This document shows, one piece after another, positions 11,411 to 53,100 of a DNA stretch of 64,000 bases (position 1 is its first letter; every line of letters starts with the position of its first letter). The position numbers and the translations under genes were made by a program. Source of the DNA: Schmidtea polychroa (lineage: Eukaryota); contig CM097886.1 in the NCBI GenBank assembly GCA_044892525.1, positions 11,098,001 to 11,162,000 on the forward strand, read 5' to 3'. The notes under the pieces were generated by a model. The model was not told the DNA's origin. It did no database searches and was given only the letters and a program-made list of their open reading frames with translations.

Positions 11411-14005
11411 TATTATAGATTAATGAGTTTTTATTATGTGATTTTCAAAAATGTCTGAAAATATTTTGTTAAATATTATTTTAAATGTTATTATAAAAGT
11501 TGCTCAAAAATCTTAACCAATTCTCACAAAGATATATTACACCCAATGATAATAAATTAGAATTCTAACTAATAAGCACTTTAATTGGTTAACCAAATGA
11601 CTCCTTTTTGAATCGAACAAAGATTTTTACTCCAAATGATAAAGAATTATCAATGAATGTTGTTATTAATGACCATGTATTTTTTACGAATGAACTGAAG
11701 CCATGTTGAATGAGTGGATGATCTTATCTTCGAACATAGAAGATCCAGAGAAAAAAAAAAACTTCATTTTGTAATTTTGGACCAACTTCCACCATATCAT
11801 TAAGTCCCACCCCATTACACATGGCTGCTGCATCAAACACAATACGCACTTTCGTGGTGTCCTTATCTCTTCTAACCACGGGAAAGTGTGGTAATATCCA
11901 TTCCGAATCTCCAGGCATCATTTTCTCTTTTACAATACTTATATAATCTTTTTTCAGGTAACCATTCAAAATATCCTGATACTGAGTTCGTAAGTCTTCC
12001 TTTTCAAGCATCTTGTCCAAACTTCGCAGTCGACTTTCTGCCATTTTTTCACTATTGGGCAAAGCTATTGGTGACTCTTTCCATGGCACTTTTACCTCGA
12101 AATGTCCGTCTACTTTCTTCATCTCAGATTTGGTTTTCTCATAAATCGCCTGGTCTTTCGCTGCAAATATATTTTCCTTTAAGCCGCTATCATCAATTTC
12201 CCAAAATCGCTCCATTTGTCGTTGCAAATCCTCGCCATTACCGAAGAACGTTCGTATGAAATTGCTTTGATGGTTCCAAGTTCTTCCCACCGAGGTTCTT
12301 CCAACACATGTCCAGCCAAGTGGAGTTAAACGGGCAATCGGTTCATCCAACTTACCATCGATTTCTTTGAGTGCTCGTTGAAGCGTTAAATAATCCGCGC
12401 CAATTAACACTTCAACTGCCTGTCTCTCGTCTAGCATCGGAAAATGGATGCCCTTCAGGTGAGTCCACTTATGTTTTTCTCTGGCCCAATTTACTATCTT
12501 CATTTCTCCCGTGATATTTGTTACGGCCAGTGCGTTGAGGTTTTTCGTCAATCGGCCGTCATTACTAATTAACTTCATGGTCACTGGAGTAGCCATCATC
12601 TGTTGGACATTACCGCCGATAACCCCTATCGGTGTCCTCTTTTCCACCCCTTTTAACCCAAGCTCCTTTAAAATTCTTAGATTGATGTAGCTTACTGAGC
12701 TTGCATCATCTAACAGTGCATTGACTTTTATTTTCTTGTTCCCATTTTCCAGGTAGATTGGAATTGTTCTTAAACTAAGGTAAGGTCTTAGGTTTTTCTC
12801 GTTCATCCTTTTCTGGGTCAGCATCGTGTTGTTACCTTTTTCACTCTCCTCACTAATTTGTCTTTCATGTAATAATTCGTTGTGCCTTTGCTTACATCCG
12901 GTAACCTTGCAGAAAGATTCTTTACGACATTCCTTGGCCATGTGATTTCTTTTGAAGCAATTCCTGTACAGTTTCTTTTCTTCGATGTATAACCGTTCCA
13001 CTTTTAACTCTGCCATCTGGTTGCCCCGTAAAATGCGTCCGACCTTTTGGATTGAATCTTTCTCTTCCCCTAGACACCCCTTCTACTCTTGACACATCAT
13101 AAGCCCTGGTGCTTGGTTTAGTCCCATACACAACCTCGTTAGTGGACCTTAGGATCTCCGCTTCTTGTTGTATCCATCTTCTCAAATCCTCTATCGTCTC
13201 CCGCAATTCCTTTTCTATTTTGTCTTTTTTCCATTTATACACAAGCTTCGTCGTTAACTTGCCCAAACACTTTTGAAAAAGATATCCAGTCTTTAACTCG
13301 GATTCTTTCCCAGTGGATCCAACAAATAAGTCTAGATCCTTCAAATCTCCTTCTCGAATTGGCCTGAACTGTTCCATCTCCTCTAACATTGATAAATATA
13401 TCCTTTCATCCCCACCATATCGCCTATCCAACTTCTCTTTTGCCATTTGATAAGCCTCTGCCGAATATCCAAGATTTTCAATTAACTTTAATGGCTCTCT
13501 GTGAAGGTACTTGTGCAGGTGAAACATCTTTTCAACCTCATCACCTTCCGCTTCGTCAACACATGCAGTAAAAGCTGCTTTCCATGGTTCGTACTCTTTC
13601 ATCTTGCCTTCAAAAACAGGGATTGTAATTTTCTGTAGACTTTCCAGTTTTCTTTTATGCACGGAATTATTCTTCTTGATGGTATCATCATTCACATTTT
13701 CCTTCTCTTCCATAAAAGATTGATTTCCTTTTCTTTCCATCAATGCCCCAATTATTTGATGTTTTTCCTCGATCTCTTGCAGGTCTTTATCTAAGATTGC
13801 AGTCCAATCTTTGCAATTTTTTACTGATCGTTCTCAGATCCCCTAATTCTTCATCTAGACTCTCCTTTTGATCTTCATATTCCGCCAACCATTCGCTAAC
13901 ATCCTTCCCATTTATATCATTGAGAATCTTGTTTCTCAATCTCGTTAATTTTCCTTTTTTCATTCTCTTTTTCCACAGTCCTTCTTCTAAAATCTCTTCG
14001 TCATT

Positions 14006-14222
14006 GCCCCCGCACAGCCTGAGTGACAAATGAAGTGTCGAACCTACTTGTATCCTATAATAGTTCAATCTTCTTTTATTTTCTAACTGCTTTCCTGTGT
14101 ATACTAACATTTGATAATTTACCGGAATTCCTTCTTTGTCCTGGATTTTTCCTTTTATCTTTTCAATTGTGTCATTCCATTCAACGTCAAGAGTAAGTAA
14201 GAGTCTTGAAAAATATTTGATT
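14006..14222 (-). pseudogene. Ubiquitin domain in frame with the N-terminus of BEL Gag
   Basis: QIFFKTLT[~11-nt deletion]TLDVEWNDTIEKIKGKIQDKEGIPVNYQMLVYTGKQLENKRRLNYYRIQVGSTLHLSLRLCGG, then NDEEILEEG...KKGKLTRLRNKI. Confidence 0.9.
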
Positions 14223-14495
14223 TATACTTCCCCATCGCAACTCAAAACCCATTACCCCACTCGCCCTCACCCTTGACTTAGCTCTGTTCTTTACCCTGTT
14301 CCCTTGGCTTCCCCCTTTAAAAGAGTGCTGGGGCCCATAGCAGCACTTTCCCACGCTCGGTAGGGAAGGGAGGATGGTTAATTTTACAAAAATATTAGCA
14401 AACACATAATACGCATAATATACACATAATATACATAAACACAAAAAAGACATTTTATAATCATTAATTACCTTGTTCCGGCTGGCTAGCCCGAA

Positions 14496-14511
14496 CCACG
14501 CTCTGCTACCA
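14496..14511 (-). promoter_or_regulatory. Primer-binding site, initiator tRNA-Met
   Basis: TGGTAGCAGAGCGTGG directly after ...TGAACA; complementary to the metazoan tRNAi-Met 3' end (..CTCTGCTACCA). Confidence 0.8.
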
Positions 14512-14589
14512 TGTTCATTTTTAAATTCAAAATAAAGCATAATAATTTTATTTCCATCCACAGAGCCAGTTTTGAATAACAACAATTTG

Positions 14590-15030
14590 TCCATGTCCAG
14601 ATCATAAGATAATTGAACAACCTAATGGTCGCATCTCAGTTGATTGGGTAGAAAGCTGCTTAACATCCGCAATAGAACGACATATTATGTCGCAAGGCAT
14701 TTCATATCCATGTTTATATCTAAATCGAGCTGCTTCCATTTGTGCACGACATACTTGAGATCGATAATCAGGGATCATACCAGTCATAACACCTCCAGTA
14801 CTTTCAGTAATATTAAACAATCTTGTAGCTGAACTCTTCTCAATCATTTTATCTGGAACCTTTCTTTGTATAGCTACTACATCACAATAATTGCATCGAA
14901 TACCCACGGAAAGCAATCCACCAAATAAATTTGATATCTGTTGGCCAAAAACACCATTAACGTTATCCGATTCCAAATAACATTTATCCTGGATCATATT
15001 GTTTGAATCATAATTAACCGCAGCCATCTT
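14590..15030 (-). pseudogene. PSMA6: Proteasome alpha-6 (alpha1) subunit fragment, intronless and degenerate
   Basis: SVGIR..VVAIQRKVPDKM....TRLFNITESTGGVMTGMIPDYRSQV.RA.MEAARFRYKHGYEMPCD...SIADVKQLSTQSTEMRPLGC. Confidence 0.88.
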
Positions 15031-15159
15031 TACCAACTCTTTACAACATTCACGTTCAAAAAACAAATCGATAAAAAACTCAACAACTCGATTTCCACTA
15101 AAAAAATACACACAAAAAATTAAACTCGAAAAAACCATTCTCGAAAAACATACTTGCCA

Positions 15160-15245
15160 TGCACAATTTTACGCGTCTGTGTGCGCACACAACCAAAATA
15201 CACAAGGAAAGCAAAAAGCGCACACAGACGCGAGCATCGAATTAA
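15160..15245 (-). repeat. Hairpin module A with 15-bp perfect inverted repeat
   Basis: CGCGTCTGTGTGCGC ... GCGCACACAGACGCG; homologous to 19675-19760. Confidence 0.85.
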
Positions 15246-15290
15246 ACATAGCAGGAAACGAAAATGAACCTATCGCAAGACGCACATCTC

Positions 15291-18220
15291 TAGGGTGAAC
15301 TTGTGTAGACGGACCAGGAATTGGGATGCCATTAAATCACCAAGCAAGCTTCGTGCGTGCTTACTTTATTAAAGAAGGCAATATAGATCATCAGATTCAG
15401 AAATTCTGGGAGCTTGAGGAAATTCAAGAAGCCCAAATAGCACTTTCAACAAAAGATAAATTAATTATGGAAGAAACTAAAAACCGATTAAACTACAAGG
15501 ACAATAGATATGAAGTTAGTTTGCCTTGGAAGAAAGAGAGACCAGTATTGGTTTTAAATAAAAACATGGCAGAAAAAAGATTGTAAGGATTAAAAGAACG
15601 ATTTAGTGAAGATGCGATATTGAAAGAAGAGTATTCCAAAATAATAGCAGAACACGAAAAAAAAGATTATATAAAGGAAATTACTAAGTCAGAGAAATTA
15701 GAAAATAAATGGTTGTTACCACACTTCCCAGTCATAAAGGGAGATCGAGAATCGACGAAAATAAGAATTGTGTTTGATGCAGCTGCCAAAAATTGTGGGA
15801 CTTGTCTGAATGACATAATAGAAACAGGACCAAAATTACAAAACGACTTGCTAGATGTTTTGCTACGGTTTAGGAAACATAGAATTGCCATAGTATGCGA
15901 TATTGCTGAAATGTTTTTGCAAATAGCCATAGCTGAGGAAGATAGAAAATATTTGAGATTTTTGTGGCAAGATGGAGAAAAAATCAGAATTTTTGTATTT
16001 AATAGATTGGTGTTTGGAATAAATGCCTCCCCATATTTAGCACAGTATGTTACTCAAGAGAACGCAAGAAATATAGAAAATAGATTTCCAAGAGCTGCTG
16101 AGACAATTATTAAATCCACTTATATGGATGACAGTTTAGATTCCGTGGAATCGGAAGCAGAAGCGTTTGAGTTGAAAAAAGATTTAGAAATAATTTGGAG
16201 TATGGCCGGAATGAAAACAAAGAAGTGGATAACAAATTCTGAAAGGTTGTTGGAAAGTATTCCATTGGAAGATCGAGCGTCAAAATTGAATATTGAAGAG
16301 GAAGGAAGCATGACAGTGAAAACTTTAGGATTAAGATGGTTATCGGACCGGACTAATTTGAGTTTTCGGTGAAGCCATTTCAATCAGATAAACTAACAAA
16401 AAGAACCTTATTAAGTTGGATAGCTAGAATATTTGATCCGCTAGGATTTTTAAGTGCATTTGTAGTAAGAGGAAAGCTGATAATGCAATCAACTTGGATG
16501 TCCGGAATCGATTGGGATGATCCATTGCCAATGGAAATAGAAATGAGCGCAAAAAGTTGGTTTGAAGAAGCAATCAATTTAAATGAGCTTAAAATACCTA
16601 GATGTTTAATTTATTCTGTGAATAGCGCAGTTCATATATTTTGCGATGCCTCTGAGAAAGCTTACGGAGCGATATTTAAGAGAGCAAACTAACGAAAACA
16701 TAGAAACTAGATTTATAGCGGCTAAGTCAAAAGTCGCTCCAGTTAAAATGGTTAGTATTCCGAGGATGGAATTGCTGGGAGCTTGTGTCGGCTTAAAACT
16801 CGCAAAAAAGATATCGAGAGCGATAAATTATGATATCAAGGATGTTACATTCTGGATTGCTAGTATGGATGTTCTATATTGGATACGACAGCATGCTAGA
16901 ACATTCAAACAATTTGTGATTATTAGGGTTGGAACCATACAGTTTGAAACATCAGCCAACCAGTGGAAGCATGTGCCTACGAAGGAGAATCCAGCAGATC
17001 TTATTTCCCGAGGAATGTCTGCTAGGGATCTGCAAGATAAAACTGAATGGTTAAAAGGACCAACTTTTCTCCAATTGGGAAAAGACGAATGGCCTAAAAC
17101 TGAATTCATCGACAGGCGAAAACATGTAAGGAAATTAAGAAAGTCGTTATGCACACGAATAAGCCAGAACTAAAGAATCGGAACTTTAAATCGTCAGTGA
17201 GCTGTTTCGAACCAGAATCTTATTCAGATTGGATTAAGTTAAAATGCATATACGCATGGGTAGTCAGATTTGTTAACAATTGCAGGTGTCAAATCGAATA
17301 AAAAAAGGATCAACTGAAATCCGAAGAAATCGAGATATTGAAATCAGAATAATCAAGGCGGATCAAGGAAAACATTTCGAAGAAGAAGTCAAACAATTGA
17401 AAAAATGTAGATCCGTTCAAGAAAGGAGTAAATTAACTAAACTGAATCCGATTTTAAATAACGATGGAATTATGCGATGTGATAGTCGTATAGTGAACGC
17501 TGAATTTCTAACAACTAAAGCAAAGGTATCCAATAATCCTGAGCGATAAAAGTTGAGTCACCAGACTAATCATTAAAGATTATCATAGGAAAGGAAATCA
17601 TTATGCTGGTGTAAACCACATATTGAGTGAGATAAATTAGGAATATTGGATATTAAGAGCAAGACAGTTAATCAAGGAATGTGAAAACAATTGTCCGGAA
17701 TGTATTAGAAGGAGAGCTAGGGGAATGGAACAAATAATGGCTCCACTACCTTCATTCAGATTTGATGAACCGATGCAAATATTTGGAAAAGTCGCTGTAG
17801 ATTTTGCGGGGCCATTTGAAACGATTCAGGGAAGGGGTAAAGTCAGACAGAAAAGATATCTTTGTTTATTCACCTGCTTACAAACCCGAGCAGTTCATTG
17901 TAAAATGGCTTACTCTTTTGACACAGATGTGTTTATTCGAGGCTTCCTGCGCTTCATCGGCAGAAGAGGAAAGCTTTTAATGATTTTATCGGATAATGGG
18001 ACAAATTTTGTAGGGGCTACCGGAGAAGTTCAAGAATTTGCGGTGGATTCCTAAAAAATGGCTAAAGTGATGTTGGAAAATCAGGTTAGATGGATATTCA
18101 ACCCGCCATCAGCGCCACATTTCGGAGGAGTTTTTCAATCTTTAATAAAGTCGGCGAAGAACTTAGCACAATATTAATAAGGGTAGAAGGGTTATTGAAT
18201 TCTCGACCTTTGACGGTCCA
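15291..18220 (+). mobile_element. Second BEL/Pao pol fragment (RT, RNase H, integrase), frameshifted
   Basis: IRIVFDAAAK, DIAEMFLQI, YMDD, HIFCDASEKAYGA, SIPRMELLGA, HVPTKENPADLISRG, YLCLFTC..TRAVH, SDNGTNFVGA. Confidence 0.93.
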
Positions 18221-18648
18221 ATGTATTGATAGCAAAAAAGATATTGCCCTCACTCGAAAGCACTTCTTATTAACTTATTAACTTCTTATTACAATTTTTC
18301 AATCTTATTATTAAATTCGCTTGATTTTAAAATTGAAGTTATCACCAAGGTAGAGTACCCGAGAGGCATTGCCTTGGCGAATCACTGTTTAAAAAATAAA
18401 TATTAATAACTTTATTTATTTAATTTTGAAAATTTGATTTTCTTTTTGAAATATTACTGATTTTCTTTATTTTTATCTCTCCCTATTTACCCTTGTTAAA
18501 TTCCTTTTGCCGTTTTGAGCAACTCATATTTATCTTGGATTGAAAGGTGCAAATTTCACAACCATCATAAAAATAAAAGGTTACTATTATCAAGTTGACA
18601 GTACTATTATATTATCATAATTGCATGCAGTGTTTCCTCGTAGACAAT

Positions 18649-19640
18649 CTAAGGTCTTGAGATCTTTGATTGACGTTCATATTTTCTCTTAAGTCTTTGA
18701 AAGTATATCAGTAGAGTGAGAAGAAAAATAATGAGAAATGATATCACGCTGATGATAATGGATGACAAAATAATACAAGTGCTTTCACTGTCATTTGATA
18801 ACGATGATTTAGTTCGGTTTCTTGAAATTGGTGCTCCATAAATAAAAGAAGAATTGATGTCATTCATGAATTGATTAATCATGTTTTTTGAAGAATTGTA
18901 ACTAGTTTTTGAACTGTAGGCATCAGATGTGTCAAATTGTACTCGAAACATTTTGTTTTCCACTAGCACGATTTTCCATTGATCGCAATGAAACGTACGC
19001 TGATAATATTTAATTTTGAAGTTGATTTTGAAAGTAATTGCTGAAATATTAAAATTTTAGACGTAATGTTACCTTGCAATACAGCTTGCAGTTTCCCGCA
19101 ATAATAGATTTCCACTTTCTTATTGGTACTCGCTGGTGGTGAGACTATCCATTTTTGATTATTATATTGTAATACGACTTGTTTCATTCTTCAATCCTAT
19201 GGATTATTGACTGGAATCAATTTTAACCCACTGGTTATCGATTTCAGTACCATTTTGACGCAAAAGCTTTTCGTAATAATGAACAATGATATCATACGTT
19301 TGATTTAATTTTATATTATTGTAATGGATAAAAGGTTTTCTGATATTCAATGTGTCGATAATTTAATTTTGGAAAATTAATTTCATTTTTTGGGATTCAT
19401 GGGGTTCCCAATATATATCGATTTCGTTCACTACTGGTTCTATTGAAACTGTATTTTTAAAATTTTTTGTTAAGATCTCTATTTGGATTAGGTTATACAT
19501 TTTTGTATTATTGTTCTGAAATAGCAATTGTGTTATTTCCCAGGGATTATTATAATTGATTGCTAATTGGCGGGCGACATAAAAATTTTTATTGAAATTC
19601 AATTTCACTGATGGGTCAAAGTAGTTTAATAAATTACTTA
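18649..19640 (-). pseudogene. Env-like type I membrane protein remnant downstream of the Gypsy integrase
   Basis: Broken ORFs 19363..19608, 18963..19187 and 18649..18969; several N-x-S/T sequons; C-terminal TM IILSSIIISVISFLIIFLLTLLIYF followed by a basic tail. Confidence 0.55.
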
Positions 19641-19674
19641 TTTCTATTTCTTCCGTTGTTTCACAAAGTGATTA

Positions 19675-19760
19675 ATTGTCGATGCTCGGGTCTGTGTGCG
19701 TTGTACTGGTTTTTGGAGGTTTTTGTGTGCGCACACAGACGCGGACAATTGTGAATATGA
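19675..19760 (+). repeat. Hairpin module A, second copy
   Basis: TCGATGCTCGGGTCTGTGTGCG...TGTGTGCGCACACAGACGCGGACAATTGTG. Confidence 0.85.
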
Positions 19761-19950
19761 TTTTATGATATGGAGTTTTTTGATTGGATGAAATTCTTTG
19801 TGTGTTCTTTGCTGGATTCGAATTTTTTGGATTGTATCGGTTTTTTATTGTTAAAGTTAGTGAGTTTGGATCTTGAGTTTTCGAATTTTTTGAAATTGCT
19901 GTGCTTTTGCCAAATATATAATTTAAAATCAAGTTTTTGAGATTTCTTCA

Positions 19951-20470
19951 ATGGATTTAATTAACAAATCAAATGATCATGCTATTCAACGCAACAGGGG
20001 CGTTCACATATCTCAGAATGGTAAATGTGTGACGTGCAAGGATGGATTTATTGAAAGACTTGAATCTGAAAACTCAATGGAAAGTAATGATGATGCCTTG
20101 AATGTTTCTCATATTATTCGTCATATTCCTGTTGGAAATACTACAAACGAAACTGATGGTTCCTTTTTTATGACTAAGAGATCCTGATAACTTTAATAGT
20201 GTTTTTGGCCAACTAATATCAAATTTATTTGGTGGATTGCTGCCGCAGGATTTTAGATTTGATTCGTCAGATTACATGTTTTCAGATCAAAGTTTTGACA
20301 AGGGTGTAACGAGTATTAAGAATCAATTTGAACAAAGTGGTCCTCCACTAGCAAATGAGGCAGATATTGAGAAATTACAAGTCAAGGAAATCACCGCAGC
20401 TAATGATACAGGTTTCAGTTGTCTGTCAGATTATGAGGTGGCCGATGAAGTGTACGAGTTGCTCCGTCGA
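19951..20470 (+). pseudogene. RNF126: RNF115/RNF126-type E3 ligase fragment, intronless, RING truncated
   Basis: N-terminal finger CVTCKDGFIERL; DYMFSDQSFDKGVTSIKNQFEQSGPPLANEADIEKL..CLSDYEVADEVYEL matches DYAW..[26 protein letters not shown].EDY...E.V..LPC. Confidence 0.8.
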
Positions 20471-20647
20471 GAAACGCGGACGATTACCCAGACGATACTA
20501 AGGACCAATCTTCAAAGGACAATTAAACACAAAGATAAAACCATACAATTTGGGTACATGTTGAATATATGTGAATTTTCTCCAATAATGGAACTCTTTT
20601 TATTGCATAATTTGAAAAATATCGTCCTGCATTTGTTCCCAAAACAT

Positions 20648-22770
20648 TTATAATAAGACTTTTGTTGTATATCCCAATGGCACGGGATTTTTAGTAACTC
20701 TTTGACTGACTACTTTTTCCTCTTTGATGTCATTCCTTTTCGATCTTAAGGGATATCTAGTATTTTCAATTGCTGGCGCTTTTTTGCAACGATTAGCATG
20801 AACTATAATTGTTCCAGCTTTCTTATTATTTTGCGGACGTAATTTCAGGTTTGTTTCCGTTGTATCACACACTATATACGGTCCTTTAAATGGCCGTTGC
20901 AACTTTTGTGACAAGTCTTTTACAGGCTCTGGCTTATTCACATAGACTAGATCTCCTATATTAATATTATATGCATGTTCCCTTATATCGTATGACTCTT
21001 TATACGCTTCCTGGTGATGTCTTATTTTTAGACCAGCTTGAGCCCATACTGAATGCAATCTCTCATGCATAATTACTTTATAATCCAATATATCCATATA
21101 CTGCGATATAGGTGCTTGAAATTTCAAATCAATTGGCATGTTGTTTCGGCGTAGTTTACATAAGATAGAAGGGTGCTTCACCAGTACTTTCATTAACTGC
21201 GTTTCGATATGCGAATAAACACGGTTTGATAAATAAATCCCAATCTCTTTGCTTTCGATTAACGTAAGATGAGATCATATTAATTAGTGTTCCGTTAAAA
21301 CTTTCTAGACCATCTGTTTATGGATGGTATGGTGATGTACTCAGTTTTAATATACCAAGTAGCTCCGATATCGAATTAAATAATTTGCTTTGAAAATTTG
21401 TTCCCTGATCTGTAAGTAACTTCTTTGGTGCTCCGTATCGAAAGATAATGTTTTCTACAAATATTTTTGCAACTGTTTCTACCTTTTGATTTTGCATGGC
21501 GTAGGCTTCTGGCCATTTAGTTAGATAGTCACAAAAGACAACGATATATTTATTGCCATTTACTGTTTCCGGTAATGGATGGACAATGTCCATTGCTGTC
21601 ATTTCCATTGGCGCTCCTGACACCGACATAGATTTTAATGGAACTTTTATCTTTCTTCTTGTGTTTCGTCTTTTCAAGCATACTTCACAGGTATGACACC
21701 ATTGTCTGACATCTTGTTCCATTGTTTCCCAAAACTACTTCAAATTCAATCTTGATAATGTTTTCCGAGCTGACAAATGTCCTCCTAGTGCTCTATCGTG
21801 ATAAATCAATAATAATGCTTCTCAATGTTTTGCTGGAACTACAATTAATAGATTTTCATTTTTTACACATTTTAACAAGCCTTCATGGATAATATATTTA
21901 TGTTTTTCCTCAACAATATGTTTCCAATCACACTCCTTTTTAATTGTTATTGCATTTTCTCATCATTTTCTTGATCATATTTTAATTCGTCTATATTATT
22001 TGGTAATTTAATTGCCATAAATATTGTATCATTATAGTTCATTTCTTCATTATTATCATTATTTTCCTCGGGGATTCTCGACAATGTATCAGCATTTGCA
22101 TTTGATTTACCCGCACGGTATTTAATTTCAAAATCATATTCCTGTAATGCAATTGACCATCTAATCAACTTACTTGTTGAATCTTTATGCTTCATGAGCA
22201 ATTGTAATGGATTATGGTCCATAAAGACAACAAATTGTCTACCAACTAAATACTGTCGAAATGTAGTTATTCCATAAACCAGTCCCAATGTCTCTTTTTC
22301 AATCGTAGAATAATTCTTTTCATGGAGTTTCAAAGTTCTATTAGTATATGCAATGACATGATCTTTCTCTCCTTCAACTTGTTGTCCTAGCACTGCGCCT
22401 AACGCAAAATTGCTCGTATCTGTCATTAAGATAAAAGGTATTTTAAAATTTGAGCATCTTAACATCGGTTTTTTAATCAGACTTTCATTAAGCAATTCGA
22501 ACGATTCCTGTTGAGTTTTTGTCCATTTAAATTGAGTCTGCTTTTTTATTAGTATGTTCAAAGGTTCTGCTACACGCGCAAAAATTTTAATGAATTTTCT
22601 ATAATAACTGGCGAATCCGAGAAATTGTCTAACATGATCTACATTTTTTGGAATTGGATAATTTTTAATTTTCTCTACATTTTCTGGGTTTGGTTGCAAT
22701 CCACTTCGTGATATAATATGACCCATATAGACTACCTCTGATTTCCCCCATTCGCATTTTGAGGGGAATT
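20648..22770 (-). mobile_element. Gypsy pol fragment: RT C-terminus, RNase H, integrase
   Basis: KCEWGKSEVVYMGH, RQFLGFASYYRKFI, LMTDTSNFALGAVL, YSTIEKE, NADTLSR, CHTCEVC, FCDYLTKWPEAY, LLTDQGTNF, TSPYHP, PFKGPY. Confidence 0.93.
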
Positions 22771-23330
22771 GATTCTCTCGTTTGACAACTATTTTGCTCC
22801 ATATTACAAAATGAATGAGTTTGTAACTTCCCTGTATCATCATCGAAAGCTTCTTCAAATTCTCTCAGTTCCGTTAAATATTCCTCAATCACTACAGCCT
22901 TTTCAATAATTTTACCTCTGACTTTGTATGGTTCCCATTCACAATCTCCGTCTTATTTCATGATTTAGTTTATAACAAACGTCTTTTTTTTGCCTTCAGT
23001 TTAATTTCCGGGTTAATTTTTAACTCTTCTGTTTGAAATGCTGCTAAACAATTTTCTGGCATAACTTCCACTGGCCTTTGAATCGTATACATCTTTATCA
23101 ATGAAGTGTGGCTCCACTTTCCACAGTAAAATACAAACATAGTACGTTTAACTATACATTCTCGAACTTTCGTTCGTCTTAAATCGGATTCTTGATATAC
23201 ATGATATTTTACATCTTTTTCAATCTTTAATTTCCGCGGATATGCATCTAAATCTTTCCCATTTCCGTTTTTGAACAATCATACGCAATCATACAGATTG
23301 TCTGTGTAATTATTGCGCACAAGATTATTA
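22770..23330 (-). pseudogene. N-terminal half of a chuvirus-type (class III-like) glycoprotein
   Basis: Signal peptide then IAYDC; VYQES..RTKVRECIVKR..FVFYCGKWSH; ENCLAAF; GDCEWEPY..G..IEKAVVIEEYLTEL..C....SC; joined directly to RT sequence at ~22770. Confidence 0.75.
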
Positions 23331-23892
23331 TCATAAACATTGCCCATGGAAATATCATCGTTTTTCTCATCTTTGGACTAAGTCTCCCGTTTAGCAATTT
23401 ATGGGGTACACTAATTTCATTATTTTCATTTATCGTACGCACTTTAATTAACTTCAACCATCCTCCATTCTTTTTCACCCAATTCATTAAATATTCATTT
23501 AAAACTCGAGCTGCTGTATCTATCAAATGGTTTAATTCATCTGATTCCATAATCTTATGAGCCCCTATTTCTAAAACTACATAGGTTAAGCTTGTTACTA
23601 TTACTTCTTTATCAATTCCATTTTTCGTCAACGTTGTAATCACTGCTGTATCACAAAATTCATAATTTTCACCAAATCTCTGCATAACGCTAGTAAGTTT
23701 CCTTTTCATTTCATTCGCCCTGTCCCCCAATTCACACTTTGCATCCACTTTTACTTTAAACATTGGGTATACTACTTTAACTAAATTCTTTAATAACTCT
23801 TTCGTCTCATCAAATTCTAATTCTGACCTTACCAGGCTCTTTTTTATCTCATGCAACGTTCTAGGCTTTTTTGTAATAATTTCACTATTCAT
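23248..23892 (-). CDS. Bcl-2-fold domain fused to the glycoprotein signal peptide and N-terminus
   Basis: BH4-like ETKELLKNLVKVVY, BH3-like MKRKLTSVMQRF, BH1-like AVITTLTKNGIDKEVIVTSLTY, strong BH2 VLNEYLMNWVKKNGGW; then hydrophobic MIFPWAMFMIIILCAIITQTIC and IAYDC. Confidence 0.78.
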   Translation of the reverse strand: MNSEIITKKPRTLHEIKKSLVRSELEFDETKELLKNLVKVVYPMFKVKVDAKCELGDRANEMKRKLTSVMQRFGENYEFCDTAVITTLTKNGIDKEVIVTSLTYVVLEIGAHKIMESDELNHLIDTAARVLNEYLMNWVKKNGGWLKLIKVRTINENNEISVPHKLLNGRLSPKMRKTMIFPWAMFMIIILCAIITQTICMIAYDCSKTEMGKI

Positions 23893-24540
23893 TTCGCTTC
23901 TTGGTACTTGCCATTCCTTTTGTACTTCGTTATTTTACTTTTATCTTTGTCATTATTTCCTAAGTCATTATTATCTATTACGCTTTCTCCTTCAATTCCA
24001 CTTTCATTTACATCATCTCCTTCTATATCAGTATTCGACCTGTCGGACTCATATCCTGTATTTGACATCTGACTTTTAATTACCATCACACAATTCACTA
24101 AATATCCTGAATCTGAACATAAGTATCCGTCTACCTCTAGTTTTCGAGGTATAAACCCACAATCGTATAAATACTCATCGTCATCTAACTCTTCACCTTT
24201 AAATATCAATAGAATAATTCCATCTTTTCCCATTCTTTCGTCGGCCTTTGTACACCAATTTTCTTTTATATACTCCGTTTTCCCCTCATTTTCATAATCT
24301 AATGCTATTACAAATGGTTTTAATTCCAACCTGGTTTCTCTAATCTCTTTTCCCAATTTTCGCAATAAGCCTTTTAATTTCTGTCTATATATCGATCCTT
24401 TATGGCCGTACTACATTTACAATTTCTAATTTACTATTTTCATCAAATTCCATTTCCTCAACTAATTTCAATTTTTCATTAATTTCATTTCTATCCCACT
24501 CATCTAAAGCTTCTCTCAAATCCTCTCAAGTTTCGAGCTT
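23889..24540 (-). CDS. Unknown ORF with acidic C-terminus, coupled to the Bcl-2 ORF by an ATGA overlap
   Basis: 158-aa ORF 23889..24365; degenerate coding-like sequence continues to ~24540; stop TGA overlaps the next ATG (AAATGAAT). Confidence 0.55.
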
Positions 24541-25062: not shown

Positions 25063-26095
25063 TGATCGTCGTTTTCATCTTCCGACTGACACGTAGATTC
25101 CTCACTTTTCCGGCCATTTTTTAATTGTGCCCCTACCCTTTCCATTTCTTTAAATTGATGATCTGTAATAAAGAATCTAGCCAAAAATGGAATACAACCA
25201 ATAATTAATTTCCATGGTCATCCCGATATTGCATATATTCGATGTACTGACAACATTTGCGACACTACCACCTTTGCCGTTATCACAATCACGTAAATTC
25301 CAATTAAACTTGCACATACTTGCCCCAAAAACATGAACTTACCCCAAATCCTTTCCATCGTTTTGTATGTAGCTCGTTTGAAATGATCATGTATTAGCAA
25401 ATTTTCGTAATTTACTGTTCCTTCTCCATTCGGTAATACCGTGTCAATCATTTCTGAAATTATCCGTTCCTTCTTGGATGGAAACAACAAATTCCTTTGA
25501 GCTTCTTCGATATCTTCGCTCGCATACAAACCCATTTGTGCCATTTTGTTTAGTGATGAGAAATTTATCAGGTATTCTAAATTTGTTAATTCTAGTTTGT
25601 CTGGAGTCTTGACCCCACGATAATCTGGTAATGCTATCCATGAATCTGTCGCTAATCGGTATAAAGGGGCTAATAATCGATTGCATTGCAAAATCTTTGG
25701 TTTAGTTTGTTCATCAAGCAAGATTTATTTAGGCTTACTGGTAATTCGTTCGTACATTTTTCGTATTTAGCAATTTTCACTGTGACTTCTTTGCATTTGT
25801 AACTGTATAACGCTTCTCCAAATATTCTCACAAACACTCCATTTTCTGATATTAGTCTAGGTGCTACTAAATTTGGATTCGTAATTGCCATCGCCATCCG
25901 ATTTCGTAGAATCTCTTTATTTAACTTGCAATCGTTCAGAATCAATTCTCTATATACATTTTCCATTATGTTCTAACTAAAATGAAACAAATAATCAATT
26001 TTATTAATAAAATAATGAGTAAGTTTAATATCATCTCTATGAATTTTAATTTTTGCTTCTTCCACAACTTTTCTAGACACGTAAACACCTTCATA
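25063..26095 (-). pseudogene. C-terminal half of a chuvirus-type glycoprotein
   Basis: TYEGVYVS..HYFINKIDYLF, YRELILNDC, GEALYSYKC..V, CTNELPV, C..LLAPLY, MGLY..DI...LLFP, WGKFMFLGQVCASLIGIYVIV TM, acidic tail. Confidence 0.78.
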
Positions 26096-26302
26096 AGTGG
26101 AGGGGACAAAATATATTGTCNNNNNNNNNNNNNNNNNNNNNNNNNNNNNNNNNNNNNNNNNNNNNNNNNNNNNNNNNNNNNNNNNNNNNNNNNNNNNNNN
26201 NNNNNNNNNNNNNNNNNNNNNNNNNNNNNNNNNNNNNNNNNNNNNNNNNNNNNNNNNNNNNNNNNNNNNNNNNNNNNNNNNNNNNNNNNNNNNNNNNNNN
26301 NN

Positions 26303-30400: not shown

Positions 30401-31880
30401 TAAATTAAAGTAATTTATGTTCTAATAAACAATCAAACCAAATCATCTACAATACAGCAGTGTGTGTACAAATACTGCTGGAAGAAAAATAACATGTCGC
30501 ATTACTTTATATAAGCTGTGCTAATGCCGAAAATCTCATTCGGATTTGTCTATTGATAAAATCTATTACAATAACTTTACTGATTTTCATTGCCTTTTTA
30601 ATCAACCAAAGCAGGTAGATGTGAGCCCGCTGGCACAAAGACCTATGACTCGTCACTTTTCAGTGATGACTCATCGTGTAGAGGGTGAGTCAGGGGTCAT
30701 GTGGGTGTATCATATATGTGTGTATGACTCATGGGATTTGTTCTACAGCGGTTCAAACCCATCATGTCGGGTGAAACGCATGAGTCATATATCTTTCAAA
30801 ATTTTTCTAAGGTAGATGTGAGCCCGCTGGCACAAAGACCTATGACTCGTCACTTTTCAGTGATGACTCATCATGTAGAGGGTGAGTCAGGGGTCACGTG
30901 GGTGTATCATATGTGTGTGTATGACTCATGGTCTGTGTTCTACAACATGTCAAACCCATAATGTCGGGTGAAAAGCATGAGTCATATATATTTTTCAAAA
31001 TTTTTCTAAGTCAAGACAAAGACATGTACCCCCCCCCAAAGCAAAAAATTTTTATGACTCATACTTTTTAAAAATTTTTCTAAGTTAGAACAAAGACATG
31101 TAACTCATAGCATTAATTTTTATGAATCATTATTATTTCAAAATATTACTATTATAATTAATATTATTATTATTGATATTATTACTATTTAAATTATTAT
31201 TATTATTATTAAACATCCTTAGTATTATTAATATTATTTTTTAAAATTATTGAATGACTTTAATATTGCATCTGAATTGCATCTTTCTTTATTAACTGTA
31301 TTGCCGCTGTCTTTCTTAATCATATATTTTTTTTCTATCCTATTATCTTTCAATTTATTTAAAATATTATTATTAATATTATTATTATTATTTTTTTTTC
31401 TAAATCAATAACAAATAACTGATTAAAAATTTATTGATTAAAAAATCTATTAAAAACCAAGAGAAAGTCTTGCACGTTTTAATCTCCATATTGGAGAATA
31501 AATATTGTTTTGGTCCACTTTGAATTCTAAGTTAGAACAAAGACATGTATCCCCTCCCCCTATTTTAAAATTTTTTATTATATATATTTTTTTCAAACAA
31601 TTTTAGTTTCTAATTATTATTATTATTTCAAAATATTATTTATATTATTATTGATATTATTACTATTTAAATTATTATTATCATTAAACATCCTTACTAT
31701 TATTAATATTATTTTTTAAAATTATTGAATGACTTTAATATTGCATTTGAATTGCATCTTTCTTTATTAAACTTGCAACTGTATTGCCGCGGTCTTTGTT
31801 AATCATATATTTTCTATCCTTATTTGTGTTAGCAAGGGTCATTATATAATAACTTATACAAATTATTATTAAAACAACCA

Positions 31881-32417
31881 ATGAAAGCCATACACATAAA
31901 TGGTATAAATAAAATGAAAAACAAAAAAATCATATTTCATTTAAAAATGAACGGGGAAATAATTGAAATTTTAAACGGAGTGGTATCAAATGAAAAAGGA
32001 GGTGAATTAATCACAAATATTCAAATTCTCGTGGATGAAGCCATGAAAATTTACAGAAGGAATCCCGTCGATTTTTCGTGGATCCTCACAAGGAAAACCA
32101 TAAATGCAAAGGAAAATGCATTTAAAAGCATATTTTATTCCTTATTTGAAAATATGAAGTGGTCACGGGTCATCGTGGCTTTCTTATACATGAAAATTAT
32201 TTTACAAAGTTCGGAAGAGAACTATGAAAGATATTTTTAAAATAATATCTAGATAATTCAAAATGAAATTTCGCCATGGGTATCAGAAAATGGATCCTGG
32301 AATGTCATTAATGAAATTGTTGAAAAACGAAAATCTCAAGACAAGACAAAATTAATTTTAATAATGTTTGGAATTACTGTATGTTGTTTTTCTATAAAAT
32401 ATATTTTTAAAAATTAA
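31881..32417 (+). pseudogene. Bcl-2 family homolog with C-terminal membrane anchor (short disrupted stretch at 32238-32252)
   Basis: BH1 SLFENMKWSRVIVAFLY; past two in-frame stops, BH2 IIQNEISPWVSENGSW and TM LILIMFGITVCCFSIKYIF. Confidence 0.8.
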
Positions 32418-33008
32418 TACTTCTTTTATTCTTTAATATTGTAAAATAAAAAAAAAATTAATCTTTATTATTTATTACACTATAACATTCGCATTCCTCG
32501 TCACCACATTTATTATCTTTATTTGTTTCTTCATCATCGTTCATATTTTTGTCATATTGTGCATCATCCAATATATGATTATATATATTTATTCCGGTCA
32601 TTTCTAATATTTTTTCGGCTAAATACTTTATCCGATCATCTATAAAAAGAATTAAAAAATAATAATATTAATAATAAAATACCTTTTTCATTTAAAGTAG
32701 ACATTTTATGTATTTTATGTATTATGTGTCTTTGTTTATTTGCATGTTTATTGCACATGTCTTTATGTTATTCATGTGATGACTTAGTCATCTCTTTGTT
32801 AAAAATACTCATCATTTCCTTGTTTAAATTTAGTAGTCATGTCTTTCTAATTTACATGCTATTTTTTTTCTAACCAATCACAATTCTGATTGGTCAATTT
32901 TATCATTTCACTAAATACTCAATTTCGATTGGTCGGTGAGTAAATCTTTTTGTTTTGATATTATGTATAAACATCACTTTTAATTTCACTTTTAGAAAAT
33001 TTCAAAAT

Positions 33009-33491
33009 ATGAACAAGCAAATATTCATGACTAAAGAAGAAGAATCGATTTCGCGAAAATGTAAATTTATTATTTTTATTTTTAAACTTGAATTTATTAT
33101 TATGTTTTAGGAAATGTTTGTCACTTTTTCATTGGGAATCCGAAAAAAGCTCGTTTAGGAAACATACAGCAAAGTAAAATTTATTTAATTTTTAAAACTT
33201 TATTAATATTTTCCTATTAGATGTTTTAGCTTCAACTTCCGCTTCTATTCGATCCAATTTTTTGCCTGTGGATATTGATGAAGAAGGTAAATTAAATTAT
33301 TATTAATATTCAAAATATTAATATATATTCAGAAAACAACCAAAATTTACCCAACAAATCTCGCAGGAATGACAAAAAAGAAAAATATTTAATGAACAAT
33401 GCCATTCAAAACCCAAACATGCCCAATATTTCGACAAATGCCAACCAAAAATTAACCAACAAGTCTCGCAGGAAGAACAAAAAAGAAAAAT
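33009..33491 (+). pseudogene. Small spliced gene of unknown function (exons 33009-33060, 33111-33173, 33221-33286, 33333-33491)
   Basis: Three GT-AG introns (50, 47, 46 nt); exons 2-4 form one open frame ending in repeated NKSRR..KKEK; exon 1/2 junction creates TGA; CCAAT boxes at ~32870-32940. Confidence 0.55.
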
Positions 33492-34280
33492 GTAAGTGTT
33501 TTCAAATTGAAATATGTGATTCGAATAATTTATTTAATAATTATGATATAGATATTTTAAAGTAATTTATATTTTAGTTTTTATTACGTTTTTATAAAAT
33601 AATAACTGTTTTCCAATTGAAATATGTGATTCGAATAATTTATTTAATAATTACGATATATATATCTTTTTTCAAGTAATTTATATTTTATTATGTTTTT
33701 AAAAATAAAATTATTTAAGTTGATAACTATTATGAAATTTATTTTCAAAAATATTATTATTATCATGTAAATTTTTCCAATTGAAATATGTGATTCTGAT
33801 ATTTTATATAATAATAAGTAATTCATAGTTTATTACTTTTTATAAAATAAATAATTCAAAATAATTATCGATTTTTTTAAAAATTATTTTATTTGGAAAA
33901 ATTTACATTTTAATAATATTTTTGAAAATAAATTTCATAATAGTTATCAACTTAAATAATTTTATTTCATAATTTAAAAAATATAATTTATTAGTTGTCA
34001 TTAAAGATATTGTTATAAATAAAGATGAAAAATATTTTTAAACCTAATATTTTACACAGGTAAATTATACCCTGATTGTTGTCAAAGGACAGATCATGGG
34101 CCTGGTTGTCACGATACTATGGATAATTATTATAGTAAAACTTACTATAATAAAAAATATTACATATGTCCCATATGCATGACTCTAAACGTAAACGAAT
34201 ATATTGATTTTTATAATCAACATAAAAATCATTTATCCTATTTTGAAAGTAATAAAAAAGAAATTTTTTCAACATTAATT

Positions 34281-34765
34281 AAACATTTAATGAAATAGTT
34301 AATTCCGATAAAAAAATTATAACAAATTCTGAGGAAACTGAAATTATTGCACCAGAACCTATAGTAATTACTGAGGTTATAACAATTTCTGATGACGATG
34401 AAAATGTACAAGAAGAAGAAGATGGAGCTGAAGATCACGAGGAAGACCGTAGAGAAGATAGGCCAGAAGATGGTGGAGAAGATGGAGCTGAAGATGGTGG
34501 AGAAGATCGTGACGAAGACCGTAGAGAAGATCGCGAGGAAGATCGTGAGGAAGATCGTGAGGAAGATCGTGGAGAAGATGGAGCTGAAGATGGTGCTGAA
34601 GATGGGCCAGAAGATGGTGGAGAAGGCCTTGGAGAAGATGGTGAAAATTTACCAGTGATCGAATATGATTTGAATCGATCGCATAAGGTAATAAAATTAA
34701 ACATTGAAACAAAGAACATGACTCACTCAAGGTCATATGATGACTCATCAAGGCCATATTTTTAA
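34281..34765 (+). CDS. Acidic low-complexity reading frame (EDxx repeats) with SIM-like motif; no ATG, not in the ORF track
   Basis: Open frame ..EPIVITEVITISDDDENVQEEEDGAEDHEEDRREDRPEDGGEDG..; 12-nt GAAGAT periodicity. Confidence 0.5.
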
Positions 34766-34935
34766 GGCCAAGGTCATATTTTTAAGGTCAAGGTCATATT
34801 TTTAAAGGTCAAGGTCATATTTTTAAGGTCAAGGTCATATTTTTAAGGTCAAGGTCATATTTCTAAAGGTCAAGGTCATATTTTTTAAGGTCAAGATCAT
34901 ATTTTTAAGGTCAAGGCCATATTTTAAGGTCAAAC
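34740..34935 (+). repeat. ~21-bp tandem array of AGGTCAAGGTCATATTTT
   Basis: About 8 units; inverted copy at ~44150-44280. Confidence 0.9.
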
Positions 34936-34949
34936 CTTCACCAAAGGGT

Positions 34950-35600: not shown

Positions 35601-36069
35601 CGAAGGGTCCAAGGTTCAAAAATTTTAAAACCTTATAATATACATATCAAACAAAAGGTAATTTAAAGATGAGTATGATGGTCCAAGTTTGAAGGTCAAA
35701 AGAGTCCAAGGATCCAAGGTTTAAATTTTTCAAACCTTATAATATACATATCAAACAAACGGTAATAAAATTCATAATAAAACTCATTTATTTTTTGAAC
35801 AAACTCATCATTTTCAGAACATAGACAATGACGCGCCCATGGGATTTATTATTTATTACTATCAAATGTATTATTATTATTTATTATTATTAATTTCAAT
35901 ATTATTTATTATTATTATTATTTTCGAAGATATTTTCAAAATTTATTATTAATAATATTATTATTATTATAATTATTATTATTATTACTATTATTATTAT
36001 TGTCGATGTTTTATTATTATTTACTTAAATATTCATAAAACTTAATTTCTGCCTCAATTTACGATTTTC

Positions 36070-37315: not shown

Positions 37316-37399
37316 GTTTTCAATACAAATCAATACAATATCAAAGTCAAATGAATTATTACCATACATAATGACGGTACTATAATGTAGAAAATTTTC

Positions 37400-50141: not shown

Positions 50142-53100
50142 GTGGGGAGCGAAACTTCAACTCATAGTTCACCAGTTAGAGTAAGATATTGGAGGGGAAA
50201 TGATTCAAATCAAGATTTAAATCAAAACTTTCTAAATTCAAAAATTGAAACCAAGTATAATTATTTATTTTCTACGAGTGGATTCAAAAGAATGATTAAA
50301 GATGTAATAAGGGAGTTGGAAGAAAATCAAGAAGATCGTGAACAACAATTAGGAGAATCAAATTTAATTTTCCATTCTTTCCAAAGTATTGAAATAAATT
50401 GTTGGAAGGGAAGACTACCAATTCGTAAATCTTATATTCCAACACCATTTATTTCTAAATATATTATAAATGTTAAAAATAGAGATAACAAATGTTTCCT
50501 ATGGGCAATTTTATCAGCTCTACATCCACAACAACATAATTCAGAGCGAGTATCTAAATATCGACAATATGAAAATGAAATAATATTTTGGGAAGATTTT
50601 GAACATCCAATGAAAATAGAACACATATCAAAATTTGAAAAGTTGAATAATCTTAGAATTAATATTTATGAATTAGAATCTTAGAATGGTAAGGAAATCA
50701 TACCAATTTATATTTCGAAACAAACAATTTCTGAAACAAGTTTTAGGTCTGAAACAATTAGTCTACTAATGTTAGAAAAGGATTCAATTGATTCAACTGG
50801 TTTAATTTCTCATTATGTTTGGATACAAAATTTTCAAGGTTTTATAAGATCTCAATCATCAACCTCTCATAGTGTTAGAGGACACACTTGTGAAAGATGT
50901 CTTTCTTATACAACTTCTGAAAATGTAAAAATAAAACATGAAAGATTATGTCAACAAATTGAACCAGCATTAATTAAAATGCCAAAAAATCCTGAGATGA
51001 AATTTAAAAACTATTCAAATTTATTAGAATCTCTTGTTACAATTTATGGAGATTTTGAAACTATTAATACAAAACAAAACCTAGAACAAGAATACATGAA
51101 TGTTATAGAAAGAAATGATCTAACCGAGTCTTGGAATGAATACAATTCCAACTTGGATTCCTCTCTCTCTCTCCAAACTTGGATGAATCAAATAGAATGA
51201 AAACTTTCTCAAGATGAATAAAAAATCTTTTACAATAACAATAACCCAACCACTTCCATCTGCATATAATTTATTCATCAAAACTAATTATCCTAAATTG
51301 GTTAAATCATTTGAAATATCATATCGAGGAACTTCAGCACAAGATACTTTAGATCATTTTGTTACAAATATAAATACTTTGGAACACTTATTATTTAAAA
51401 AATTACAAACCAATTATCCAATACATTTTTCATCACATCAACGAATTGAATATCAAAATTCTGAAATTTGTTGGATGTGTAAGCAAGACCTTTTAGATGT
51501 TACAAACCCAAAAGTTCCTGATCATGATAATTTTAAAAAGAGAAATAAATATAGAAGTGCAACACATAAATTATGTAATTTAAATTGTAAAAATCCAAAA
51601 TTCATACTAATCATATTTCACAATCTTGGTTATGATGTACATTTATTCATAAAACATTTAGCAATCAATGCAAAAAATAGTTTAAAGGTTATTGGATTGA
51701 CAAAAGAAAATTACAAGTGTGTAGAGTATGGATGTTTAAAATTCATAGATTCATTAAATTTCTTTAGAACAAGTTTAGATTCAATTGCAAAAACAATGAG
51801 ATTTGATCAAAATTTTAAATATACCACAGAAAATGTTTTAATTAAAAATATTATTCCAATGTGTTGGGGTTAGAGCAAAAACAAAATAAATTTCACAGGG
51901 TACCAGAAAGCAGAACAAAAATTGGTAAAATCAATATAAGTACAAAATTAATTAAAATTTAATAAAAATTAAAAATCAATATCGAACGGGGGTATCGGGT
52001 ATGGTTGAATGCCAAATTGTGAGACGCGGTTAGAAAGTATAATAAAAATGTAATAGGGTGACCATAGAAAAAGTTAATAAGGGAAAACAAATTAATTAAA
52101 ATTAATTAATCTGTAATGGAAAGCCCGAGCCAATGGAAAGCCCGAGCCCATGGGAAACCCGAGCATTGAAGAAAACCCGATGCGCAGTGAGACCCGAGAC
52201 ACCAGATAAGGGAATAACAATTCGAATAATAATTGCAGGGTAAATAAATTAAAATAATTGTCGAACCGTTCAAAATTTACTTAGGGTGCCCGGGGAAACA
52301 ATTAATTTCATTTTGTTAGATAATGGGCCTCTTAAAAACAGTATAAAAGGAGATCTTAGAAATGAGCAAGCCGCCATTTGGTCGAAGAGAAAAAGGAAAA
52401 AGTTAAACAGAAAATCCAGCAAGGACAAGTCAAAAGAGGAAATTTGTGAATTATAAAGAAGCTAGATCGTAGAAGAAAAGGTAATTACCCCTTGGGTTTC
52501 TTACCTTAGCGAACCAAATTCAAATTGAGAGAAAGGTGCAAATAGTGACAAATTGTAATTGTGATAAAAAGCGAATAAAGTTATTCTGTGTTGAGTTTTC
52601 ATTGATTTGATAAAATAAGGACACGAGGAGTCAGAGAAAGGACCGACTTACAAATAAAAACTCAACAAATGGAAGAATATCAAACTTGTTTAGCTAAAAG
52701 AATATATCCATATGATTATATGGATTCATTTGATAAATATCTCATAACAGAATTACCACATGAAAATTTTTATTCAATATTAAATCAATCAATTACATCA
52801 CAACAAGAGGATTCAAGAGCTAGAAAAATGTGAGAATTGTTTGATTGTGAAACTATGGGTGATTACACAGATGTATAAGTTTGGATGTTTATATTCTTGC
52901 AGATTGTTTCGAAAATTTTGTAAAAAGATTTCCTTTGAAACCTTACAACTAATAACTCTACCTTCATTAGCTTGGGATATATGATTATATGGTATGATTG
53001 GTTCAATTGAATTACTAACTGATGTAAACATGTTCAACATGATAAAAAATAATATCCGTGGAGGAATTAGTTATATAATGGGTGAAAGATATATCACTGC

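Follow-up and report, generated by a model that had tools for sequence, protein, structure and literature searches.

The window analysed here is a 64,000-nucleotide stretch of the planarian Schmidtea polychroa (assembly GCA_044892525.1, contig CM097886.1, positions 11,098,001 to 11,162,000), and our subject is a minus-strand region of it in which a Bcl-2-like domain precedes a viral-type fusion glycoprotein (G). This region belongs to a decayed copy, with internal deletions, of a 14.3-kb planarian long terminal repeat (LTR) retrotransposon (family A), and the copy is dead. In the window translation, the minus-strand frame 23248-23934 runs from the Bcl-2-like region through one hydrophobic segment to the motif AYDC, and the frame is broken there, with a stop eight codons past AYDC; the C..CG..SH part of the glycoprotein lies in a different frame (22970-23278) and a third piece at 22665-22952. 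Break and deletion positions were set by comparison with an intact natural copy of family A (82-88% identity), which placed short deletions at ~23248 and ~22986 and a loss of ~3.0 kb at 22766/22765, fusing G, after its first third, to the end of the reverse transcriptase (RT). Gag and both LTRs are missing. An earlier note on this DNA had read 22770-23892 as a single open reading frame (ORF); the frame breaks show that this is not so in the window copy, and it is so in intact copies elsewhere in the genome. The parts of the copy are as follows.

23893..24518 (-): ubiquitin-like repeat 2 (motif DDDEYLYDCG) with an acidic linker, both upstream of Bcl-2; start of the copy; Pfam ubiquitin match weak
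23446..23856 (-): Bcl-2-fold domain, residues 13-149 counted from the Met at 23892; based on PF00452, the AF2 model, VIA and the BH1 table
23596-23619 (-): BH1 position, GIDKEVIV, within the Bcl-2-fold domain
23458-23481 (-): BH2, WVKKNGGW, within the Bcl-2-fold domain (LMNWVKKNGGW is 23458-23490)
23293..23358 (-): hydrophobic segment, predicted to be the glycoprotein's internal signal peptide; based on hydropathy, the (-3,-1) rule and the PF24664 start
23248..23292 (-): glycoprotein start (MIAYDC...), in frame with Bcl-2 up to the frame break and stop; based on the natural intact copy
22766..23247 (-): N-terminal third of a gB/chuvirus-type glycoprotein in two further frames, cut at the deletion junction; PF24664 E 5e-10, 82% nucleotide match to family A
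22765..22766 (no strand): junction of the ~3.0-kb deletion; family A residues ~1304-2307 (rest of G, G anchor, protease, most of RT) gone; based on the family A comparison
20528..22765 (-): frameshifted stretch of the same copy with the RT end, RNase H and integrase; PF17917 E 3e-34, PF00665 E 3e-12, 88% to family A
18309..19658 (-): what is left of the C-terminal membrane protein (transmembrane helix and a likely FN3-type ectodomain), together with the start of ORF2; 78% to family A

An insertion of ~870 bp separates the last two features.

Intact copies of the element

A genome search with the window sequence returned 152 matches in the 150 candidates scored of 1,740, and open frames of at least 3,400 aa hold 15 of the 150 matches listed. 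A single frame from the Bcl-2 start into the G motif was present in 20 of the 30 best-matching loci, bearing out the claim of the earlier note that Bcl-2 and G are adjacent in frame. Gag zinc knuckles, Bcl-2, G, protease (PR), RT and integrase (IN) share one frame in 16 of 19 ten-kb stretches, which were selected for long frames and do not give a frequency. Four families, each with one ORF and the same domain order, were distinguished: A (14.3 kb, 811-bp LTRs, ORF1 of 3,419 aa), B (16.7 kb, ORF1 of 3,437 aa), C (~13.6 kb LTR to LTR, 3,053-3,057 aa) and D (17.8 kb, 3,334 aa). The chain of A and B starts with Gag, which has four CCHC knuckles, and continues with two weakly ubiquitin-like repeats, Bcl-2, the hydrophobic segment, G, its anchor, PR, RT, RNase H (RH), IN and a final membrane protein. 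The Pfam ubiquitin match to the repeats is weak (E 0.03 in family A, 0.002 in D), the region gave no usable Atlas match, and ~100 residues between PR and RT carry no Pfam match. The intact elements have the Ty3/gypsy pol order PR-RT-RH-IN (Pfam), LTRs with TG...CA ends, a primer site and a polypurine tract. The primer-binding site TGGTGAGCCCGACGTGA, found in A, B and D (L032/L033, L037, L120; base after the 5' LTR), resembles a tRNA-Trp site. Two family B copies are 98.2% identical across 13.6 kb. None of the four Gags begins with Met-Gly, so there is no N-myristoyl anchor.

The junction of Bcl-2, linker, hydrophobic segment and [AV][YF]DC is common to A, B, C, D, a giant Burro element of the same genome and the public proteins P0003, P0004, P0005 and P0007. 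A profile search of 1.84 billion proteins gave 8 matches, comprising four with Bcl-2, segment and G in one chain, one 82-aa fragment and three stand-alone Bcl-2 proteins; word-based homologue searches were near-empty, with 1 of 1,195 and 0 of 2,502 candidates, and 4 of 4,295 for G. The upstream motif DSGY/GYESD, considered as a conserved degron, was rejected, being absent from B, C and D.

Several further features of these elements were recorded. Two family A units stand in tandem with the middle LTR in common and 99.99% identity (L031-L035, G000:C3:53220830-53248640), and a family C tandem of the same kind occurs at L093-L094; these may reflect tandem integration or an assembly artefact. A second frame, ORF2 (486-496 aa), lies downstream of ORF1 in A and B (L033:7605-9062) without a convincing Pfam match and is triplicated in one B copy. 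P0001 and P0007 show a gag/env-type layout followed by several tandem aspartic-protease domains, with no RT match.

The Bcl-2-fold domain

The Pfam profile PF00452 matched the Bcl-2 region of the window copy at E 9e-4 and sister copies at 8e-6 to 1e-6, all below the curated cut-off. Bcl-2 rows were weak in a single-sequence PDB search (best E 0.08, designed helical repeats ranking above them), and a 5-sequence profile against PDB reached Bcl-2 at E 2e-4. For structural comparison, the window domain was folded with AF2 from 20 element-derived rows, with no cellular Bcl-2 among them, giving a predicted local distance difference test score (pLDDT) of 79.5 and a predicted template modelling score (pTM) of 0.76. 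The top 33 of 50 VIA rows were all Bcl-2-fold proteins, led by Hydra Bcl-2-4 (Z 12.8, root-mean-square deviation (rmsd) 2.7 A over 126 residues). Foldseek agreed with this fold at E 1e-3 and above: every one of the 48 pdb rows shown belongs to the Bcl-2 family, and neither the pdb nor the viral set gave a row under E 0.001. The Bcl-2 match of the modelled window region is beyond chance, and the fold on which the earlier note depended is supported by the profile, the AF2 model, the VIA score and Foldseek alike.

In a tree of 30 Bcl-2 cores, with no rows dropped, the 18 element rows group with P0008 (support 93/98). A single, ancient origin of the element Bcl-2 is neither rejected (approximately unbiased test, p-AU 0.42) nor demonstrated; the tree leaves 14 of its 26 inner branches open and does not allow a donor to be named. 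P0008 is a stand-alone, tail-anchored Bcl-2 protein of 186 aa on a 100-kb contig, with the same BH1 region (KNGINKEVIV) as families A and B, among which it is placed on a long branch. From its sequence, it is possibly a donor-like lineage or a long-branch artefact.

The hydrophobic segment and the glycoprotein

In the window, the segment consists of a basic n-region, a Met, an h-region, a polar c-region and T-I-C before the predicted cut, which lies two residues ahead of [AV][YF]DC. Nine of the 10 lineages have a small residue at -1 (background 0.22), nine an allowed residue at -3 and eight both; at offsets -6 to +2 the same (-3,-1) pattern occurs in 0-4 of the 10. The distance from BH2 to the cut ranges from 42 to 70 residues. 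The viral G profile (PF24664) aligns from its position 4-6 within the segment in A, C, P0004 and P0007, and P0001, which has no Bcl-2 match, carries Gag, a DDEYLLDCG repeat, the segment and G. Because the viral profile begins inside the segment and P0001 has the segment without Bcl-2, the segment is most likely the signal peptide of the envelope protein (env) itself, which came with G, and not a captured Bcl-2 tail anchor. The earlier note had the Bcl-2 anchor doubling as the env signal peptide: in effect this is plausible, as a cleavable segment is predicted that would leave the Bcl-2 side membrane-anchored, while the proposed origin is not supported, in view of these same two observations.

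Two other readings of the segment were weighed. It could be an uncleaved signal anchor, so that G would be held at both ends until cut by a different protease. For some gB-type ectodomains a transmembrane segment is described on either side (PMC13524379), and the family A segment, with a Kyte-Doolittle hydropathy (KD) of 2.4 over 19 residues, is long and hydrophobic enough to span a membrane. The fixed distance of the (-3,-1) pattern from YDC in 8 of 10 lineages and the short, signal-like h-region in C and P0007 speak against this and make it improbable. Alternatively, functional env could come from a separate subgenomic mRNA starting at the Met before the h-region, with the fusion just keeping gag and pol in frame and the Bcl-2 link being incidental. 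A Met does lie 18-22 residues ahead of the predicted cut in A, B, C, Burro, P0001, P0003 and P0005 (7/10). We had considered a Met to open the segment in every lineage, and this was rejected: none is so placed in D (only at -16), P0004, P0007 and the C variant L098. Since Pol would be made only by translating through env, the segment would arise in the polyprotein in any case, and we give the subgenomic route little credence. Contigs from four runs, none of them recorded as RNA, had no joint that ended near the segment when aligned to a family B copy, which speaks neither for nor against this route.

The glycoprotein of the natural A copy matched PF24664 at E 2e-87; this is a class-wide family, and the match separates chuvirus G neither from other Monjiviricetes nor from retroelement gB-type proteins. 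Its model (pLDDT 68, pTM 0.51) retrieved herpesvirus gB in Foldseek (E 5e-13), and in VIA 12 of the top 13 rows and row 18 were class III fusogens or their domains, with rhabdo-, thogoto- and baculovirus proteins among them and a best Z of 8.8; with the pTM of 0.51 and an rmsd of over 20 A, the domain packing of the model is unreliable. By sequence, the G profile matched no solved glycoprotein among the solved structures. PF24664, Foldseek and VIA together support the class III glycoprotein of the earlier note.

A C-terminal membrane protein

Behind the integrase and in frame with it follow a second signal-like segment, an ectodomain and a transmembrane helix (L033:6038-7258; L038:8707-9921; L121:4715-5824; L094:2633-3466); the remains of this tail protein in the window are also given as 18649-20690 (-). 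The ectodomain has FN3 look-alikes (Atlas 0.92, recognition low), no Pfam match and, in A, 8 N-glycosylation sequons. The chain ends in S/T-x-V/L in five of five cases, namely ETWV (A), ETFV (B), STLV (C), ETRL (D) and ATLV (Burro membrane ORF), with a chance of ~0.025 each, and the tail protein of family D contains a PPSY motif. We take the chain end to be a PDZ-type tail and PPSY to be a late-domain-like motif. As judged by these features, the polyprotein likely ends in an FN3-type membrane protein with a PDZ-type tail.

Proposed working of the polyprotein

The reading we favour, by a modest degree of belief, is that the window holds a piece of a compact, Burro-related Gag-Env-Pol LTR retrotransposon in which the hydrophobic segment is the internal signal peptide of G and stays behind after cleavage as the anchor of the Gag-Bcl-2 side. 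The chain would thread the endoplasmic reticulum (ER) membrane in the manner of a flavivirus polyprotein. Gag, the ubiquitin-like repeats and Bcl-2 would remain cytosolic; the first signal would send G into the lumen, and the G anchor would bring PR-RT-RH-IN back to the cytosol, before the second signal sends the second, likely FN3-type ectodomain into the lumen and the last helix gives way to a short tail of PDZ type. G would be freed by signal peptidase, with the capsid side still tied to the same env-bearing membrane, so that the anchored Gag-Ubl-Bcl-2 chain would couple capsid and Pol to that membrane. The element's protease would later cut the capsid loose, and a matrix-like job would be done from the C-terminal side. 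In place of the free-standing Bcl-2 regulator that the earlier note expected from the precursor, Bcl-2 would end a Gag-side chain of ~1,070 residues. Its fold would be kept by selection, likely for a non-canonical role such as membrane docking or binding of another host partner, and not for trapping BH3 peptides. Internal signal peptides that stay on the upstream protein are found in the anchored capsid of flaviviruses and in the core of hepatitis C virus (HCV), and the foamy virus env leader peptide binds Gag. As a tentative extension, enveloped particles may be made from one membrane-threaded polyprotein, with a groove-dead, anciently captured Bcl-2 and the leftover env signal acting as an inverted matrix that tethers Gag, and with the PDZ tail of the FN3 attachment protein steering budding to one cell surface.

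A different role for the Bcl-2 domain is compatible with the same processing: the released, membrane-anchored Bcl-2 could function in a pro-survival way, binding Bax/Bak/Bok or BH3-only proteins of the host and keeping the producer cell alive. Pro-survival Bcl-2 proteins are the best structural matches, BH2 is intact, 9 of the 10 lineages examined retain the domain, and apoptosis control may be a theme of these elements because the related Burro also carries IAP and TRAF-like genes; divergent viral Bcl-2 proteins, moreover, still bind BH3 (PMC7719400). The BH1 position argues otherwise. It reads DKEV in A and the window, NKEV in B, DRDV in D, NRDK in C, DQNR in Burro, and NQEK, NRDK, SRNK, SEEK and TDSK in the public proteins, so that neither the W nor the G of NWGR is kept in any of the 18 element rows. 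The groove region is 8-17 residues shorter in A-D, the BH3-to-BH1 span being, in an alignment-dependent count, 39 in A, B, D and P0003 and 30 in C, versus 47-48 in L066 and P0009. An acidic residue replaces the glycine of NWGR in most lineages, a change that resembles the G145E null mutant of Bcl-2. An ER-inserted signal peptide would, in addition, probably not bring Bcl-2 to mitochondria. Changes in NWGR have been tied to weaker or lost BH3 binding, and mouse Boo, with SWSQ, binds no pro-apoptotic partner (PMC5691656). A canonical anti-apoptotic action of the element Bcl-2 is doubtful because no element copy retains the W or G of NWGR, and we regard the pro-survival role as rather unlikely.

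Returning to the membrane-tethered chain, several observations weigh against it or against loss of the canonical groove. Exact NWGR occurs in only 2 of 12 non-element rows, so BH1 degeneracy alone proves nothing; BH1 is degenerate also in the stand-alone Bcl-2 proteins P0006, P0008, L071, L073 and L076, Burro has a normal BH3-to-BH1 span (46) and keeps the R of NWGR, where six lineages have K, and some poxviral Bcl-2 proteins bind BH3 through other arginines (PMC7719400). Between A and B, Bcl-2 is 56% identical with a dN/dS (ratio of nonsynonymous to synonymous divergence) of ~0.18 and G is 82% identical with a dN/dS of 0.045, values for which dS is near saturation. The corresponding ratio for shared variants within family A (pN/pS) is 0.74 in Bcl-2 (12 N, 4 S) versus 0.20 in G, and that of Bcl-2 is 0.06 in B and 0.42 in D, so Bcl-2 is under modest, uneven constraint. 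The (-3,-1) pattern is found in 8 of 10 lineages also at offset +3, by construction of the pattern, which leaves the cut site uncertain, and as the 10 lineages are related, binomial P values for the rule overstate their independence. P0001 is an element without Bcl-2, hence the domain is not essential to tethering. Finally, a second, amphipathic segment follows the G anchor; if it crosses the membrane, the proposed topology fails.

Other features of the window

Further pieces related to the element families lie outside the copy.

25063..26096 (-): C-terminal half and anchor of a glycoprotein from sister family B; 92% to B, 75% to A; PF24664 E 5e-25 and 2e-17
51859..52667 (+): solo LTR of family A on the opposite strand, 27 kb off; 96% to the 811-bp LTR, TG...CA ends

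The piece at 25063-26096 was considered as the missing G half of the window copy and rejected on its identity of 92% to family B versus 75% to A.

A second, unrelated Bcl-2-like gene is located at 31833-32410 (+), with BH1 KWSR, its own tail anchor and two stops in frame. A family of multiple, apparently intron-bearing copies (L074, L078-L092) resembles it. Its surroundings, long inverted repeats nested in one another together with TBP-like and integrase genes, are Polinton/Maverick-like. These repeats (window 30610-46293) reach 938 bp at 98% complementarity and contain a duplicated 145-aa ORF at 36802-37236 (+) and 40422-40856 (-). BEL/Pao-type pieces are present on both strands at 11724-18054 (DUF1759), and the interval between them holds an ORF for ubiquitin (13787-14221, -) and a fragment of a proteasome subunit (14602-15168, -).

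Comparison with known elements and proteins

The domain order is already in print, and the discovery claimed in the earlier note, which held the architecture to be undescribed, is not new. Burro-2, -3 and -4 carry BCL2, and the env between BCL2 and PR matches mononegavirus fusion glycoproteins (Arkhipova and Yushenova 2019, PMC6431247); the same article calls the Burro env the first case in frame between gag and pol, and cites Grohme 2018 and Jurka 2007 for the Burro/GYPSM1 giant Gypsy elements of planarians. The IAP capture that the earlier note mentioned for such elements was correct (PMC6431247), and a BIR domain was found in the giant element of this genome. BURRO1 is derepressed in smedwi-2 RNA interference (PMC8532177). 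In the literature searched, no account of the signal-anchor reading or of the BH1 loss was found for these elements, and earlier element descriptions may hold the signal peptide; none of the FN3/PDZ tail turned up either, although no search was aimed at it and earlier descriptions may show it.

What the present data add is that the Bcl-2/env junction is found in five element families of one planarian genome and in four unrelated public proteins, pointing to an old, conserved design, and that the compact elements are Burro stripped to the parts it apparently keeps. With them, two questions become testable with short constructs: by what means a retroelement can fit an in-frame env between gag and pol, and whether, in an animal dependent on stem-cell turnover, cell death is regulated by a Bcl-2 that a transposon carries.

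Compared with viral and cellular Bcl-2 proteins (Hydra Bcl-2-4, Trichoplax Bcl-2L2, canarypox CNP058, Bax, Bak, Bcl-xL), the element domain forms the same helical bundle (Z 11.7-12.8 over 124-132 residues) and shares W..GGW of BH2. It differs from them in the lost NWGR of BH1, the shorter groove region in A-D and its place within a polyprotein. Unlike in those proteins, the hydrophobic segment behind it leads into a predicted lumenal protein; pro-survival Bcl-2 proteins end in a tail anchor, whereas the element precursor has none, and one would arise only after the predicted cleavage. With the polyproteins of flaviviruses, HCV and foamy viruses the element has in common, by prediction, a signal that doubles as anchor of the capsid side, a working analogy with no sequence relationship.

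Burro and family A are alike in having one polyprotein with a CCHC-knuckle Gag, BCL2 directly before env, PR, RT, RH and IN, and env in frame between gag and pol. Burro has a ubiquitin/SUMO-like domain before BCL2 and a dUTPase-like region between PR and RT. The giant Burro-type element of this genome, with which family A shares the Bcl-2/segment/[AV][YF]DC junction, is represented by two copies 96.8% alike over 26 kb (L124-L126, G000:C1:201092001-201122000, and L127-L129) and carries MATH, ankyrin, a TRAF-like ORF and a BIR ORF of 392-393 aa, and the genome has at least 150 BIR matches. MATH, BIR and ankyrin gave no Pfam match in ORF1 (first 3,333 aa) of A or B or in ORF2 of A, in contrast to the giant element, which has all three. 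Family A measures 14.3 kb with 811-bp LTRs versus over 30 kb for Burro, its ORF 3,419 versus 4,873 aa, and it is 52% identical to the Burro of this genome in RT-RH and 35% in G.

An eLife 2026 supplement lists six gB-type gag-env-pol elements of S. mediterranea and gives no tRNA type for them (PMC13524379). Gag-env-pol elements of Macrostomum, Prostheceraeus, bryozoans and nematodes also figure in that article. Smed_errantivirus_1 among them is, by sequence, the likely orthologue of family A: its G fragment matches that of the window at 68 of 78 residues, counted by eye in a comparison that covered this fragment and not the whole element, and both have gag-env-pol order, a gB-type env, a similar length (the Smed locus is listed at ~14.8 kb) and many intact copies (45 for the Smed element). 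Families D, C and Burro resemble Smed 2, 3 and 6 by eye. As far as that article and its supplements were available, "Bcl", "Burro" and "polyprotein" do not occur in the main text, and the seven supplements have no Bcl-2 annotation. With the HSV/gB-type (HSV, herpes simplex virus) GAG-ENV-POL errantiviruses of flatworms, family A shares the Ty3/gypsy pol order, LTRs, primer site, class III gB-type G and near-identical intact copies. In its predicted features the element works like Burro, departs from it in size and in the MATH, BIR and ankyrin features, and fits the gB-type gag-env-pol errantiviruses on every feature tested.

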